Of a DNA stretch of 24,000 nt, positions 8,453 through 21,132 are shown piece by piece. The stretch's first letter is position 1. Each line of letters opens with the position of its first letter. Made by a program: the position numbers and the translations under genes. Under the pieces are notes generated by a model that was not told where the DNA came from, made no database searches, and was given only the letters and a program-made list of their open reading frames with translations. Source of the DNA: Coralloluteibacterium thermophilum (lineage in GTDB: Bacteria; Pseudomonadota; Gammaproteobacteria; Xanthomonadales; Xanthomonadaceae); assembly GCF_042654365.1 (NCBI RefSeq), contig NZ_JBHSGG010000041.1:18489-42488 (forward strand), written 5' to 3'.

Positions 8453-8453
8453 C

Positions 8454-8927
8454 GCGGGAATGGGGACTCGGGAATCGGGACCTGTGGGCGTTTGAAGGTC
8501 GGAGGGCTCGCCATGGAGGGCGGGATGGCGCAGGATTTCAGGGATCTGCGGGTGTGGGAGGAGGCGATGCAGCTGGCCGAGCGCGTATACGCGCTCGCCG
8601 GGCGCCTTCCGCGGGAGGAGCGCTTCGGCCTGTCGATGCAGATGCGCAAGGCGGCGGTTTCCGTGCCTTCGTGCATTGCGGAAGGCAATGGCAGATCCTC
8701 GCTGGCCGACTATCTTCGCTTCCTTTCCATGGCACGCGGCTCCCTGTCGGAGGTCCAGACACAGCTGCTTCTCGCGGGGCGCCTGGGCTTCCTGTCTCCG
8801 GATGATGTCGATGCCGCCCTTGCGCAGGCGCGCACGGTCGGCATGCTGCTCACCGGCCTTCGACGAGCCCTGGCCTCCAAGACCGCATAATCCCCGCCAT
8901 TCCCGATTCCCCCTTCCCGATTCCCGA
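8454..8927 (+). mobile_element. G-heptad inverted-repeat element, copy B, carrying a four-helix-bundle gene (putative non-autonomous cassette)
   Basis: G-arm 8454-8484 (GCGGGAATGGGGACTCGGGAATCGGGACCTG). C-arm 8891-8927 (reverse complement TCGGGAATCGGGAAGGGGGAATCGGGAATGGCGGGGA). Fills the glyA-nrdR spacer. Mobility is inferred from the multiple copies, not demonstrated. Confidence 0.5.
8525..8890 (+). CDS. four-helix-bundle protein (23S rRNA intervening-sequence protein / Avd-like family)
   Basis: Family-typical pattern DFRDLRVWEEAM...ERFGLSMQMRKAAVSVPSCIAEGNGRSS..DYLRFLSMARGSLSEVQTQLLLAGRLGFL. Start ATG at 8525 is preferred because GGAGG lies 5 nt upstream. Alternatives are ATG 8513 and TTG 8492 (the track start). 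Confidence 0.85.
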   Translation: MAQDFRDLRVWEEAMQLAERVYALAGRLPREERFGLSMQMRKAAVSVPSCIAEGNGRSSLADYLRFLSMARGSLSEVQTQLLLAGRLGFLSPDDVDAALAQARTVGMLLTGLRRALASKTA

Positions 8928-11595: not shown

Positions 11596-12714
11596 ATGCC
11601 CTTCGCACCCGTACCCGAACTGCTCGAGGAAATCCGCGCCGGCCGCATGGTCGTCGTCGTCGACGACGAGGACCGCGAGAACGAGGGCGACCTCATCATG
11701 GCCGCGGAGCTGGTGCGCCCGCAGGACGTGAACTTCATGGTCACCCACGCGCGCGGGCTGGTGTGCCTGGCGCTGACCCGCGAGCGCTGCGCGCAGCTGG
11801 GGCTGGGGCCGATGGTCCGCGACAACACCGCGCAGTACCAGACCGCCTTCACCGTCTCCATCGAGGCCGCCGAGGGCGTCACCACCGGCATCTCCGCCTA
11901 CGACCGCGCGCACACCATCCGCACCTCGGTGCGACCCGATGCCAGGCCGTCCGACCTGGTGCAGCCCGGCCACATCTTCCCGCTCGCCGCGCATCCGGGC
12001 GGCGTGCTCAGCAGGGCGGGGCACACCGAGGCGGCGGTCGATCTCGCCATGCTCGCCGGGCTGGAGCCCGCCGGCGTCCTGGTCGAGGTGCTCAATCCCG
12101 ACGGCTCCATGGCCCGGCGGCCGGAGCTGGAGGCCTTCGCACGCGAGCACGGGCTCAAGATCGGCTCGATCGAGGACCTGATCGCCTACCGGCTCGCCAC
12201 CGAGCACACCGTGGAGCGCATCGATGCGCGCGGGATCGAGACCGAATTCGGCCCCTTCACCCTCGTCACCTACCGCGACCGCATCGCTCACGACCTGCAC
12301 TTCGCCCTGGTGCGCGGCGCGCCGGACGCCACGACCCCGACCCTGGTGCGCGTGCAGGTGGAGAACCCGCTCGCCGACCTGCTGCACTGGCGCCGCGAGG
12401 ACTTCGGCGTCGCCGGCACCGACGCGCTGCGCGCCATCGCCGAGGCCGGCAGCGGCGTGATGGTGGTGCTGTCCGCGCCGCGCGATCCCGACGCCCTGCT
12501 GGCCCGCCTGCGCGCCGAACCCGCCCCCGCGGACCGCCGCGACGTCGGCGAATGGCGACGCAACGGCGCCGGCGCCCAGATCCTCGCCGAACTCGGCCTC
12601 GGCCCCCTCCGCGTCCTCGGCACCCCCCGCCGGCAGGTCGGGTTGGCGGGGTTCGGGCTGGAGGTGGTGGAGTATGTGGAGCTGGAAAATGCGGGAATGG
12701 GGAATCGGGAATAG
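11596..12714 (+). CDS. ribBA: 3,4-dihydroxy-2-butanone-4-phosphate synthase fused to a GTP cyclohydrolase II-like domain (RibBA/RibBX type)
   Basis: Lies inside track ORF 11098..12714. Start ATG at 11596. DHBP synthase blocks DDEDRENEGDLIMAAE and AGHTEAAVDLA. C-terminal GCH-II-like half. The last 8 codons (AGMGNRE*) are encoded by the repeat arm. Confidence 0.9.
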   Translation: MPFAPVPELLEEIRAGRMVVVVDDEDRENEGDLIMAAELVRPQDVNFMVTHARGLVCLALTRERCAQLGLGPMVRDNTAQYQTAFTVSIEAAEGVTTGISAYDRAHTIRTSVRPDARPSDLVQPGHIFPLAAHPGGVLSRAGHTEAAVDLAMLAGLEPAGVLVEVLNPDGSMARRPELEAFAREHGLKIGSIEDLIAYRLATEHTVERIDARGIETEFGPFTLVTYRDRIAHDLHFALVRGAPDATTPTLVRVQVENPLADLLHWRREDFGVAGTDALRAIAEAGSGVMVVLSAPRDPDALLARLRAEPAPADRRDVGEWRRNGAGAQILAELGLGPLRVLGTPRRQVGLAGFGLEVVEYVELENAGMGNRE

Positions 12715-13014
12715 GGACCTGGAAGTCGGCGCGTGATTGGGGCCTCGCGCTGGCGGCCTCCACGCCCTCGGCGCCCTGCAGCGGGTAGGGCAGGAGTGGA
12801 AGGGGCTCGGGAATAGGGCCTCACGGTCGGCTCGCGGTCGGAGTTCGAGCTTCGGGTGCCGGGGTCGAGAACGGGGCGCGGCGTGCGTGCCTCTCCCTCT
12901 CTCCGTTCCGCTTCGTGCCTCTCCGTCGCCCTCACTCTGCCCCACCTTGCCAGTCCGTCCCGCCCTCCAGGTCCCCATTCCCGATTCCCCATTCCCGCTT
13001 TTCCCGCTTCATCC
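12691..13014. repeat. G-heptad inverted-repeat element, copy C (gene-less, rearranged)
   Basis: G-arm 12691-12722: GCGGGAATGGGGAATCGGGAATAGGGACCTGG. Internal partial arm 12802-12822: GGGGCTCGGGAATAGGGCCTC. C-arm 12967-13014, reverse complement GGATGAAGCGGGAAAAGCGGGAATGGGGAATCGGGAATGGGGACCTGG. Confidence 0.75.
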
Positions 13015-13537: not shown

Positions 13538-13992
13538 ACCGTCGTCCCGAAGGCATCGATCCCGCCGCGCGCTCGCGCGCCCGCCGCCGCGCCCTGCAGG
13601 CGGTCTACGCCTGGCAGCTGTCCGGCACGCCGGTGGTGGAGGTGCTGGCCCAGTTCCGGCACGAGCAGGACATGGAGATCGCCGACGCGGAGTACTTCGA
13701 GGACCTCGTGCGCGGGGTGGTGACCCATTGCGGCGACCTGGACGAGGGCCTCGCGCGCTTCGTCGACCGCCCGCTGCCGCAGGTCGACCCCATCGAGCGG
13801 GCCGCGCTGCGCATCGCCGCCTACGAACTCGTGCACCGCATCGACGTGCCCTACCGCGTGGTCATCAACGAAGCCATCGAGAGCGTGAAGCGCTTCGGCG
13901 CCGAGCACGGCCACACCTACGTCAACGGCGTGCTCGACCGCGCCGCGCTCGAATGGCGCGCCGCCGAGGCCGGTGCCGCGCGCAGGCGCTGA
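13534..13992 (+). CDS. nusB: transcription antitermination factor NusB
   Basis: Lies inside track ORF 13228..13992. Start ATG at 13534 overlaps the ribH stop (ATGA). [16 protein letters not shown]..., [26 protein letters not shown]. Confidence 0.93.
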
Positions 13993-13999
13993 TGTCCCC

Positions 14000-14102
14000 G
14001 TAGGAGCGGCTTCAGCCGCGACCGGCAGGACAGTGCAGGCGTGCATGACCCATGATGCCGCGGATCGCGGCCGCCGCCGGTCGCGGCTGAAGCCGCTCCT
14101 AC
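14000..14102. repeat. REP-like perfect inverted pair
   Basis: GTAGGAGCGGCTTCAGCCGCGACCGG (14000-14025) and its exact reverse complement CCGGTCGCGGCTGAAGCCGCTCCTAC (14077-14102), separated by 51 nt. Each arm contains its own mini-hairpin GCGGC-TTCA-GCCGC. Confidence 0.75.
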
Positions 14103-17037: not shown

Positions 17038-17327
17038 GGGGCAGGGGTGGGATTGGGAGGTGGGGAAGTATGGGGCAGGGGCGCCGGGCGCGGGCCCAGG
17101 GCTTGGGGCGCAGGGCTTGGGGCAGAGGGCAGGGGCAGGGGCAGGGGCAGAGGGCAGAGGGCAGAGGGCTTGGGGCAGGGGGCGTAGCGTCGGCCCCGAG
17201 CCCCGAGCCCCGAGCCCCGAGCCCCAGGCCCCAGGCCCCAGGCCCAAAGCCCAAAGCCCAAAGCCCCGAGCCCCGAGCCCCAAGCCCCAAGCCCCAAGCC
17301 CCAAGCCCCAAGCCCAGCCCCAGGCCC
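17038..17327. repeat. head-to-head array of G-rich hexa/heptamer tandem repeats
   Basis: Left half is G-rich on the + strand, including (CAGGGG)x3 and (CAGAGGG)x3 flanked by CTTGGGG. Centre lies around 17184-17192. The right half is 17 in-phase heptamers at 17193-17311: (GCCCCGA)4 (GCCCCAG)3 (GCCCAAA)3 (GCCCCGA)2 (GCCCCAA)5. Confidence 0.9.
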
Positions 17328-17332
17328 ACCAA

Positions 17333-19280: not shown

Positions 19281-19440
19281 CGAGACGCAGGTCCGTTCAT
19301 CGGGCGGGGGTGGGATGATACCCGCTGCGTTCGCGTGCGCCGGGTGAGCGCTGTACGCCCTGTGCCGCTGCCGCCTCCCCGGGCTCCTCCGGCGCAGGCC
19401 CCGCCCGCGGCCCTCCCGTCCTCTCCAGTCTCCCATCGCC

Positions 19441-20271
19441 ATGACCGCTTCCCCCACGCCAGGCACGCTCTTCGTCGTCGCCACCCCCATCGGCAACCTC
19501 GACGACATCGCGCCGCGCGCCCTGGAGACCCTGCGACGGGCGGACGCGGTCTGCGCCGAGGACACCCGCCACACCCGCCGCCTGCTGGCCCACTTCGGCA
19601 TCGAGCGGCCGCTCCTGGCCCTGCACGAGCACAACGAGACGGCGCAGGCGGATGCCCTGGTGGCGCGGCTGGCCGGCGGCGCCTCGCTCGCCCTGGTGAG
19701 CGACGCCGGCACGCCGCTGGTGAGCGATCCCGGTTTCGTGCTGGTCCGGGCGGCGCGCGCGGCGGGCATCCGGGTCAGTCCGGTGCCGGGCGCCTGCGCC
19801 GCGGTGGCCGCCCTCTCCGTCGCCGGCATCCCCAGCGACCGCTTCGCCTTCGAGGGCTTCCTGCCCGCCAAGGCGGGACTGCGGCGCGAGCGCCTGCAGG
19901 CCCTGGCCGGAGAGCCGCGCACCCTGGTGTTCTACGAGAGCGCGCACCGCATCGAGGCCTCCCTGGCCGACATGGCGGCCCTGCTCGGGCCCGACCGCCC
20001 TGCGGCCATCGCCCGCGAGCTCACCAAGCTGTTCGAGACGGTGCTGGACGGCCCGCTGGGCGATCTCGCCGCGCGCGTCGCCACCGATCCCGACCAGCGC
20101 CGCGGGGAGTTCGTCGTGGTGGTGCAGGGCGCCGGCGAGGATGCCGACGCGGCCCTCGCCGAGGGCAGGCGGGTCTACGCCCTGCTGAGCGCCCACCTCC
20201 CGCCGTCCCAGGCCGCCCGCCTCGCGGCCGAGATCACCGGGGCGCCGAGGAAGGGGTTGTATGGGGGGTGA
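19441..20271 (+). CDS. rsmI: 16S rRNA (cytidine1402-2'-O)-methyltransferase
   Basis: 276-aa ORF. GTLFVVATPIGNLDDIAPRALETLRRADAVCAEDTRHTRRLL, SDAGTPLVSDPG, FYESAHR. Confidence 0.93.
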   Translation: MTASPTPGTLFVVATPIGNLDDIAPRALETLRRADAVCAEDTRHTRRLLAHFGIERPLLALHEHNETAQADALVARLAGGASLALVSDAGTPLVSDPGFVLVRAARAAGIRVSPVPGACAAVAALSVAGIPSDRFAFEGFLPAKAGLRRERLQALAGEPRTLVFYESAHRIEASLADMAALLGPDRPAAIARELTKLFETVLDGPLGDLAARVATDPDQRRGEFVVVVQGAGEDADAALAEGRRVYALLSAHLPPSQAARLAAEITGAPRKGLYGG

Positions 20272-20274
20272 GGA

Positions 20275-20428
20275 GAAGCGGGAATGGGGAATCGGGAATC
20301 GGGACCTGGGGCGAGGTACGGCCTGCTGCTGCGCCACCCGGCGACGCCTTCAGACGGAGCGTTCCTCCCCGAAGCCAAGCGACCCAACCATTCCCAATTC
20401 CCGATTCCCGATTCCCCATTCCCGCTTC
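20275..20428. repeat. G-heptad inverted-repeat element, copy D (154-bp MITE-like miniature)
   Basis: Left end GAAGCGGGAATGGGGAATCGGGAATCGGGA (20275-20304). It is identical over 30/30 nt to the reverse complement of the right end (20428 back to 20399). About 80 nt of unique core. Confidence 0.85.
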
Positions 20429-20458
20429 ATCCCCCCAACCCATGCCACAATCCCGTCC

Positions 20459-20826
20459 GGCGGAGTCGACCAGGCAGTCGCGTCATCCTTCGGGATGCCG
20501 AGGAAAGTCCGGGCTCCACAGAGCAGGGTGCCAGGTAACGCCTGGGCGGCGCGAGCCGACGGAAAGTGCAACAGAGAGCAGACCGCCGATGGCCGTCCGC
20601 CGCTTCGGTGGCGGTCGGATCAGGCAAGGGTGAAACGGTGCGGTAAGAGCGCACCGCGAGTCCGGCAACGGACCGGCACGGCAAACCCCACCCGGAGCAA
20701 GACCGAATAGGGACCTCACGACGTTGCTCGCGTCGGGTCCGGGTAGGTCGCTCGAGCGCTGCGGCGACGCAGCGCCTAGAGGAATGACTGTCCACGACAG
20801 AACCCGGCTTATCGGCCGGCTCCGCC
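20459..20826 (+). ncRNA. rnpB: RNase P RNA, bacterial type A
   Basis: Universal blocks GAGGAAAGTCCGGGCTCCACAGAGCAGGGTGCCAGGTAACGCCTGG, ACAGAGAGCAGACCGCC, GGTGAAACGGTGCGGTAAGAGCGCACCGC, CCCGGAGCAAGACCGAATAGG, AGAGGAATGACTGTCCACGACAGAACCCGGCTTATCGG. P1 GGCGGAG (20459-20465) pairs with CTCCGCC (20820-20826). Confidence 0.93.
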
Positions 20827-21070
20827 CCTTCTTCCTTCTCGCATCGCCGGTTCCGGCGGCGCCGGCGTGCCCGACTTGGGGGCCGCTCCTCGCGCGCCCG
20901 GGCAGGTTCGGGCGCTAGCTGCCTGAATTTCACGGGAAAACGACATCGCGGGCGCCGTCTGTCGCCACGCCTTTCTGAATGAAAACAGTGCCTGCGGGCC
21001 ACTTCTTGAACCTGAGTGTCAAGTTCGCGTTAAGCCCTTGATCCCGCAGGCGATTCCCTCCCGAACCGTG

Positions 21071-21099
21071 TTGACAGTCTCAGGACCTGAGACTAAGGT
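21071..21099 (+). promoter_or_regulatory. candidate sigma70 promoter of the dcw cluster (Pmra)
   Basis: TTGACA (21071-21076), a 17-nt spacer, then TAAGGT (21094-21099), about 90 nt upstream of the mraZ ATG. The spacer is the perfect palindrome GTCTCAGG-A-CCTGAGAC. Confidence 0.5.
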
Positions 21100-21132
21100 G
21101 GGCAACCGAGGGAAATTCGGGAATTTTGTGGT
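21098..21132 (+). promoter_or_regulatory. candidate MraZ operator (10-bp phased G-rich boxes)
   Basis: GTGGG (21098), GAGGG (21108), CGGGA (21118) and GTGGT (21128), spaced 10 nt apart immediately downstream of the -10. Resembles the phased TGGGN repeats bound by MraZ in E. coli. Confidence 0.4.

Follow-up and report, generated by a model that had tools for sequence, protein, structure and literature searches.

Correia elements, a MITE family of Neisseria, are intergenic sequences of about 100–155 bp with terminal inverted repeats (TIRs) of about 26 bp, and the hairpins formed by their transcripts are cut by RNase III. Their insertion duplicates a TA target, their interior is conserved and includes an IHF site, and their ends can supply promoter elements to neighbour genes. 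REP/BIME and REPIN elements of enterobacteria and pseudomonads are short intergenic palindromes located just after stop codons, where they form 3′ hairpins that stabilise the upstream mRNA; their partner is a single-copy gene (RAYT) flanked by the same repeats. The STRR heptanucleotide repeats of heterocystous cyanobacteria and the GGGGA(C/T)T repeats of Nostoc are dispersed intergenic tandem heptamers near ORF ends (PMC4692102). GGGAATC repeats, with four units preferred, are enriched in Xanthomonas (Rehm, Wurmthaler, Li, Frickey and Hartig, 2015; PMC4692102). There, 70–75 convergent pairs per genome lie within 50 bp of ORF ends, most copies are transcribed, no function was identified, and 83% of positions are shared with a second species, with “extensive length and sequence variation” (PMC4692102). 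The intervening sequence (IVS) of the Coxiella burnetii 23S rRNA contains an S23p gene, strain-variable heptamer repeats and a 28-bp terminal stem, which RNase III cuts mid-stem in vitro (PMC4990558).

The window analysed here is a stretch of 24,000 nucleotides from Coralloluteibacterium thermophilum, a member of the same family as Xanthomonas (Lysobacteraceae) with a genome of 3.72 Mb and 71.7% G+C (G000 in the locus identifiers below). In this window, a 154-bp element begins 3 nt past the stop codon of rsmI and stops 33 nt short of rnpB by the Rfam boundary, a distance which the initial annotation had given as 30 nt. Its placement between the rsmI stop and the rnpB 5′ end is borne out by matches to both neighbours. 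On the forward strand, rsmI (16S rRNA C1402 2′-O-methyltransferase; TIGR00096, 270 bits) occupies 19441–20271 and ends in its native TGA at 20269–20271, 3 nt ahead of the element, with the C-terminal LYGG-stop positioned as in relatives. On the same strand, rnpB, a bacterial RNase P RNA of class A (RF00010, 306 bits), occupies 20462–20827. In Gammaproteobacteria, the adjacency of rsmI and rnpB, in this order, is old.

Positions 20275–20304 are the perfect reverse complement (30/30) of positions 20399–20428; sequence reading and a repeat finder (pair I16) agree on these terminal inverted repeats, as described in the initial annotation. Allowing two mismatches, the arms measure 36 nt (20275–20310 and 20393–20428, both annotated on the forward strand), are 94% complementary and lie 82 nt apart, and both are made of tandem heptamers. 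The left, G-rich arm consists of a terminal GAAGC, the units GGGAATG, GGGAATC and GGGAATC and the inner junction GGGACCTGGG, its unit string being GGGAATG, GGGAATC, GGGAATC, GGGA. It continues into GGGACCTGGGG, and this CCTGG-type junction recurs, as previously noticed, in a gene-bearing copy at 8480–8490. The right, C-rich arm is composed of five nnTTCCC units, followed by GCTTC. The element is flanked by TGAGGA and ATCCCC. Its interior (20311–20392; no strand assigned), estimated earlier at about 80 nt without an ORF, measures 82 nt, is single-copy in the genome and contains no real ORF, as the ORFs listed for the region overlap rnpB or rsmI.

This element is an ordinary member of a family of about 50 copies of paired GGGAAnn heptamer arrays. 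A genome-wide search for other arm pairs, suggested as a check by the initial annotation, found about 50 further copies. The genome contains 420 arrays with at least three phased G3 or C3 heptamers; with at least four units, 143 G-arrays and 120 C-arrays were observed (263), compared to 0 in third-order Markov simulations, and four is the modal unit number per array. Among neighbouring arrays within 600 bp, G-then-C order occurs in 96 cases and C-then-G order in 7. About 55 pairs (a few of them false members) have GGGAAnn arms, usually of four units, which bracket about 80–125 nt; about 40 pairs are long GGGCnnn arrays placed nearly back to back, and an array type of GAGGAGT, GAGTGGR and GAGGAAC units is likewise dispersed in the genome. 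The GGGAAnn arms display a conserved outer motif, G.TGRRGC, and a conserved inner motif, GGGA(C/A)(C/T)(T/G)GnAGG. In our reading, the arms are discrete modules of outer motif, three to five GGGAAnn units and inner motif, and two of them, in G-then-C order, enclose about 80–100 nt of arbitrary sequence.

The element next to rnpB shares the traits of such paired repeats, with about four tandem GGGNATC units, convergent arrays (one per strand), and a G-rich strand that is the coding strand and starts 3 nt past a stop codon. Across the family, the first GGG follows the stop codon at a median distance of about 9 nt. The orientation of flanking genes displays no bias against the genomic background (based on crude gene calls, with approximate start-side distances), so that the family cannot be regarded as a device specific to gene ends. 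The window holds two more gene-less members, one in the pyrF/pncB spacer (2363–2589; one G-arm and two C-arms) and one after ribBA (12691–13014), neither with an assigned strand. It also holds the gene-bearing member at 8453–8927 on the forward strand, in which the same arm type surrounds a four-helix-bundle gene at 8525–8890 (TIGR02436, 108 bits).

Several other repeats were encountered in this survey. An inverted pair of a different, REP-like repeat (GTAGGAGCGGCTTCAGCCGCGAC) is located at 14000–14102 of the window, just after a gene ending at 13992; the GTAGGAGCGGCTTCAGCCGCGAC repeat occurs on many contigs and is nested in two large heptamer-armed elements (G000:C7:79374-79766 and C37:2984-3355). 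Outside of the window, at G000:C41:51900-52147, a 68-nt interior piece is duplicated directly downstream with 98.5% identity, together with an extra arm, so that a unit of arm and interior is locally duplicated in tandem. An abundant repeat of about 85–213 nt, both dispersed and in tandem, is found at G000:C14:88163-92814 and on many contigs, with one copy between two G/C tracts. In a related genome (G021:C8:89500-90210), GGGAATC-type units with a periodicity of 21 nt form an array that extends over about 700 bp.

The initial annotation regarded the element as a MITE of a larger parent. In the classical sense, this would make it a recent internal-deletion derivative of the gene-bearing element, mobilised in trans by a transposase recognising the 30-nt TIRs. 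Terminal inverted repeats are indeed present (30/30 perfect; 36 nt at 94%), the element is small and intergenic with many copies, its arms match each other better than expected from the family pool, and some sites are empty in the sister species, though these are of the GGGCnnn class. However, when 45 copies were searched for 4-nt direct repeats, with boundary offsets of 0 to 13 allowed, none had a target-site duplication (0 of 45). Interiors of different copies show no relationship to one another or to that of the gene-bearing copy: in an all-vs-all comparison, 55 interiors matched only via nested foreign repeats or extra arms. Neither tblastn nor short-word blastn detected a remnant of the four-helix-bundle gene in gene-less interiors, including the one next to rnpB, and the latter has no detectable source elsewhere in the genome, where family-wide hits are nested arms or members of other repeat families. 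A transposase-encoding partner with the same ends was not found; the full copy at 8453–8927 encodes only a 121-aa TIGR02436 four-helix-bundle protein. Moreover, the sister species has an element at this site and at 9 of the 9 comparable class-A (GGGAAnn) sites, empty ones being confined to GGGCnnn arrays, and arm unit numbers vary as they do in simple-sequence repeats. The family is not spread by cut-and-paste transposition and is not a classical MITE; we consider this reading largely refuted and highly improbable. What stands of the initial proposal is the dispersed family, the arm design in common with 8453–8927 and a link between gene-bearing and gene-less copies at the level of the genome; the transposase-bearing parent and the descent by internal deletion find no support.

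The age of the element was addressed by comparison with the sister species C. stylophorae LMG 29479 (G001), covering 0.8 Mb plus the region syntenic to the window, and with further Lysobacteraceae. Across about 50 genomes of this family, the length of the rsmI–rnpB spacer varies between 11 nt and about 1.26 kb, and only three genomes have a GGGAATC-type element in it: C. thermophilum, C. stylophorae and G012, which belongs to a different genus and is occupied at the same site. The spacer of Lysobacter daejeonensis contains degenerate G/C arms. Between the two Coralloluteibacterium species, the flanks of the site are 84–89% identical, and the right arm is alignable over 89% of its length with 91% identity over the aligned part; the left arm counts at least 9 GGGAAGC units in C. 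stylophorae versus 4 units in C. thermophilum. The interiors at this site yield no alignment (42 of 500 shuffles score equally), and the reverse-complement alignment, a sign of inversion, is no better than shuffles. At 8 occupied sites, the interiors align with z of −1.1 to 2.2, with a single exception of 5.2; five ordinary spacers reach z = 7–63, and the two species share 75% identity at third codon positions. The site and the arms persist, and the interior changes faster than near-neutral sites, third codon positions and ordinary spacers. The interior is either replaced or hypermutable.

These comparisons suggest that the rsmI–rnpB spacer was already occupied before the two Coralloluteibacterium species diverged. 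From then on, the site and the right arm would have been retained, and the interior would have been replaced or have diverged beyond recognition. Less probably, each lineage received its own insertion at a preferred target, which would account for the unrelated interiors. A recent origin of this copy, which the initial annotation had offered, next to selection on the arm sequence, as a reading of the perfect arms, is unlikely, given that C. stylophorae and a member of one other genus also carry an element there.

Sites of GGGCnnn arrays are volatile, as 3 of 4 comparable ones are empty or different in the sister species; the array loci are 17038–17332 of the window, G000:C48:66010-66181, C33:41927-42139 and C23:50274-50509. 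In the spacer at C23:50274, the sister species carries GGGAATC-type arms in place of GGGCnnn. At the site corresponding to G000:C15:55279-55410, the left arm of C. stylophorae is enlarged to blocks of six GGGACCT and seven GGGAACT units, which is a rapid block-wise expansion of variant units. The rsmI–rnpB spacer is itself an insertion hot spot in Lysobacteraceae (L001-L116), with ORF-sized inserts of 600–980 nt in several genomes (G010-G014 and G020-G021 types), and some Pseudoxanthomonas share a structured segment upstream of the −10 hexamer in this spacer.

A perfect run of at least 30 is found in only 0.1% of non-cognate arm pairs, and the copy next to rnpB is the sole one of 45 cognate pairs that reaches 30, the next best being 22. 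As such a run is rare in the family pool, the perfection of these arms is therefore moderately unusual even within the family (about 0.045 family-wise). Complementarity averages 18.2 in cognate and 17.2 in non-cognate arms, a weak excess (permutation p = 0.024), and no covariation was detected between the end positions of cognate arms; family-wide selection for pairing is therefore not demonstrated. The arms are alike mainly because each of them resembles the consensus. Template switching at quasi-palindromes is a known mutational process. Perfect arms may thus be generated by arm-to-arm correction, i.e. template switching within the hairpin, or by repeat slippage, and the former is preferred because the site is old. 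Both seem more likely than a recent insertion as the cause of the perfect arms.

The gene-bearing copy at 8453–8927 has arms of GGGAATG, GGGACTC and GGGAATC units with the junction GGGACCTG, a design that it has in common with the element next to rnpB. The genome of C. thermophilum encodes two four-helix-bundle genes, which are 44% identical. One is bracketed by GGGAATC arms and the other (G000:C34:45340-45793) by inverted GAGGAGT/GAGGAAC arms; arms of both types are scattered over the chromosome sequence, with about 55 arms of the purine-rich type. Among 41 genomes, a TIGR02436 gene is present in 11 of 11 relatives with at least 20 GGGAATC-type arm hits, versus 10 of 30 others; these genomes are kin, and no statistic is claimed. 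In eight genomes, with nine gene/arm pairs between them, copies of the gene-flanking unit are scattered through the respective genome, the flanking unit being the sole unit tested per genome apart from GGGAATC. Thus, GGGGACC has 524 hits in its own genome (G036) and AGGTTTC has 456 (G029), each with 0 in the other genomes tested; GTTTTCA has 70 hits in its own genome (G038) and 0–5 in the others. GGGATTC, which flanks the gene in four genomes, has 210 (G011), 92 (G022), 95 (G021) and 31 hits (G013), and 0 in C. thermophilum. For the GGGCnnn array class, no gene-bearing copy was found in the C. thermophilum genome.

These data support a link between gene-bearing and gene-less copies, which appears real in a loose parent-and-miniature sense; the sequence comparison is correlative, and the genomes are related. 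The description as a gene-less miniature of a gene-bearing element can thus be kept in this loose sense by virtue of the unit match in eight genomes, but not as a literal remnant, as the interior retains nothing of the gene. The family probably represents the non-coding counterpart of cassettes whose same arms bracket a TIGR02436 (rRNA intervening-sequence/Avd-like) gene. A limited literature search found no link between TIGR02436 proteins and dispersed heptamer repeats, though one may exist. A four-helix-bundle cassette with heptamer arms also lies between accB (EAMKM motif) and accC (MLDKVVIANRGEIALRILRAC) in six related genomes (G003, G021, G013, G020, G011 and G022; L120, L123, L125-L128), a conserved operon-internal position.

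The arms also invite readings in terms of the heptamers alone. Slippage at heptamer microsatellites could produce such arrays as a functionless by-product, with no connection to the four-helix-bundle gene and with incidental inverted pairing. Unit numbers at the same site differ widely, e.g. 4 versus at least 9 in the left arm next to rnpB, long homogeneous runs exist, and slippage has been suggested as the cause of the heptamer excess (Rehm et al., 2015). However, this leaves unexplained the non-repetitive conserved outer and inner motifs, the 96:7 preference for G-then-C order, the tight placement after stop codons (median of about 9 nt) and the genome-specific match of dispersed and gene-flanking units, and we think it unlikely. 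A G-quadruplex or i-motif switch, formed in DNA or RNA by the four G-tracts that the left arm (or, on the bottom strand, the right arm) provides, would modulate formation of the rsmI 3′ end or, through its place at the −35, transcription of rnpB; this reading is equally doubtful. By sequence, both arms fit four G3N4 repeats, and the C-arm adjoins the rnpB −10 hexamer in C. thermophilum, C. stylophorae and G012. Oligonucleotides of this kind form quadruplexes in vitro, and exactly four units are preferred (Rehm et al., 2015), which is also the mode here. Against this, the same architecture is built elsewhere from units that are no quadruplex formers (AGGTTTC, GTTTTCA, and GAGGAGT in this genome), the 30-bp duplex of a paired element competes strongly with a quadruplex, and no regulatory role was found by Rehm et al. 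(2015). The inability of some gene-matched units to form quadruplexes argues that quadruplex formation is not the general principle. Taken together, the results shift attention from quadruplex formation to a protein-linked mechanism.

The long hairpin predicted by the initial annotation was recovered in the folds. Positions 20262–20445 fold with −107 kcal/mol as RNA (z = −8) and with −60 kcal/mol as DNA (z = −8). In both folds, the stem extends into the last rsmI codons: an outer extension at 20262–20274 (forward strand) provides TGGGGGG from the end of rsmI, which pairs with CCCCCCA at 20431–20437. The stem is followed by CAUCCCCCCAACCC without a U-tract and is therefore not a canonical intrinsic terminator; a promoter and terminator scan of 19300–21100 likewise returned no terminator-like site. 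At a permissive threshold, Rfam gave only sub-threshold matches to plant microRNA precursors (51 bits versus a gathering score of 137), which reflect the generic shape of a long hairpin.

A stem of 30 perfect pairs with flanking pairs is a textbook substrate of RNase III. We hypothesize that the element is transcribed as the 3′ tail of the rsmI mRNA, that the transcript would fold into this stem, and that RNase III would cleave the stem or 3′ exonucleases would be halted by it. In this way, the hairpin could set the 3′ end of rsmI and prevent read-through into rnpB. Such an end-defining or insulating role of an RNA hairpin at the rsmI 3′ end is the function we would favour by analogy, because the stem is of the RNase III substrate type and because the Coxiella IVS stem provides a precedent.

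Upstream of rnpB, the CACAAT reported at 20446–20451 is present and forms part of a probable extended −10, TGcCACAAT (20443–20451, forward strand), which lies outside of the element. In relatives in which the promoter-proximal spacer was read, a −10 hexamer (GACAAT, CACAAT, TAGAAT or TACACT) is situated 9–10 nt 5′ of rnpB, the same distance as here, in many cases with TG one base 5′ of it, and this motif is kept both with and without the element. The segment 20429–20461 is 88% identical to C. stylophorae. The initial annotation had let the −35 overlap the element end: a 17-nt spacer does place the putative slot at 20423–20428 (forward strand), inside the terminus, but the hexamer there, CGCTTC, is unlike TTGACA, and a −35-like hexamer is absent at this slot in both C. 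thermophilum and C. stylophorae. The scan of 19300–21100 found no promoter-like site either. In relatives with spacers of 11–50 nt, the −35 region lies inside the coding end of rsmI, and the element has therefore displaced that region. The idea that the element replaced or joined the rnpB promoter holds with respect to this displacement, but a supply of promoter elements is not demonstrated, and the −10 is outside. Judging from the sequence, the rnpB promoter most likely relies on the extended −10, and rnpB would be transcribed from this TG-extended −10 just beyond the element, which would not provide a −35.

A conserved, dedicated regulatory structure of rnpB, be it a leader or a promoter element, might be suspected, since 33 nt separate the element from the downstream rnpB and three genomes have a related element at this place. 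The comparative data refute this notion, and we give it next to no credence. The initial annotation had pointed out that conservation of the spacer across distant relatives would indicate an rnpB structure; among about 50 Lysobacteraceae, however, only the three carry the element, and the interior is unconserved even within the genus. About 45 other Lysobacteraceae have spacers of 11–110 nt or unrelated inserts in its stead, and all retain the −10; about 50 further copies of the family adjoin unrelated genes.

Based on this dataset, we consider it reasonably probable that the three parts of our explanation hold jointly, namely a long-resident family member, a hairpin at the 3′ end of rsmI and an independent rnpB promoter. 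The element probably persists mainly through a maintenance of all copies at the level of the family, and not through a locus-specific benefit. More speculatively, and with a rather low expectation of being right, the gene-less hairpins might be kept in trans by the four-helix-bundle protein of the genome, which would recognise its own heptamer arms, so that arms and site are preserved and the contents actively replaced. If true, the hairpins would be “brackets” that are maintained while their contents can be exchanged, and they would form a class of genetic element separate from transposons, REPINs and integron cassettes; the perfect arms of the copy next to rnpB would mark a recent round of bracket maintenance. 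The puzzle posed by this family is sharpened by its failure in the MITE tests, by the persistence of brackets with diverging contents, and by the gene-matched units.

Among the described systems, Correia elements resemble the element in size, terminal inverted repeats and intergenic position, whereas the heptamer family has neither a target duplication nor a conserved interior. REP/BIME and REPIN elements are similar as intergenic palindromes after stop codons and in having a partner gene with the same flanking repeats; here, however, the partner is a four-helix-bundle protein and not a Y1 transposase, the arms are tandem heptamers, and the interiors are long and unrelated. The STRR and Nostoc repeats differ in that they are mostly single arrays, with few inverted pairs reported in Nostoc. 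The Coxiella IVS has a long inverted-repeat stem (28 bp, compared to 30 perfect pairs plus extensions here), heptamers, and the same protein family in full copies; it sits inside an rRNA, unlike the present element, which lies between ordinary genes and is gene-less, and for which cutting by RNase III would be expected by analogy.

The closest counterpart is found in the GGGAATC pairs of Xanthomonas. The published account treats them as simple-sequence repeats and describes no outer or inner motifs, no fast-changing unrelated interiors and no gene link; divergent spacers are under-represented there, whereas the flanking orientation equals the background in C. thermophilum (PMC4692102). Nevertheless, both occur in the same bacterial family and agree in the unit (GGGAATC/GGGAATG), the number of about four units, the convergent pairing and the proximity to ORF ends, and in both, positions are conserved between species while length and sequence vary. 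The copy next to rnpB is thus an ordinary member of a published repeat class, and no special rnpB story is needed to account for it.
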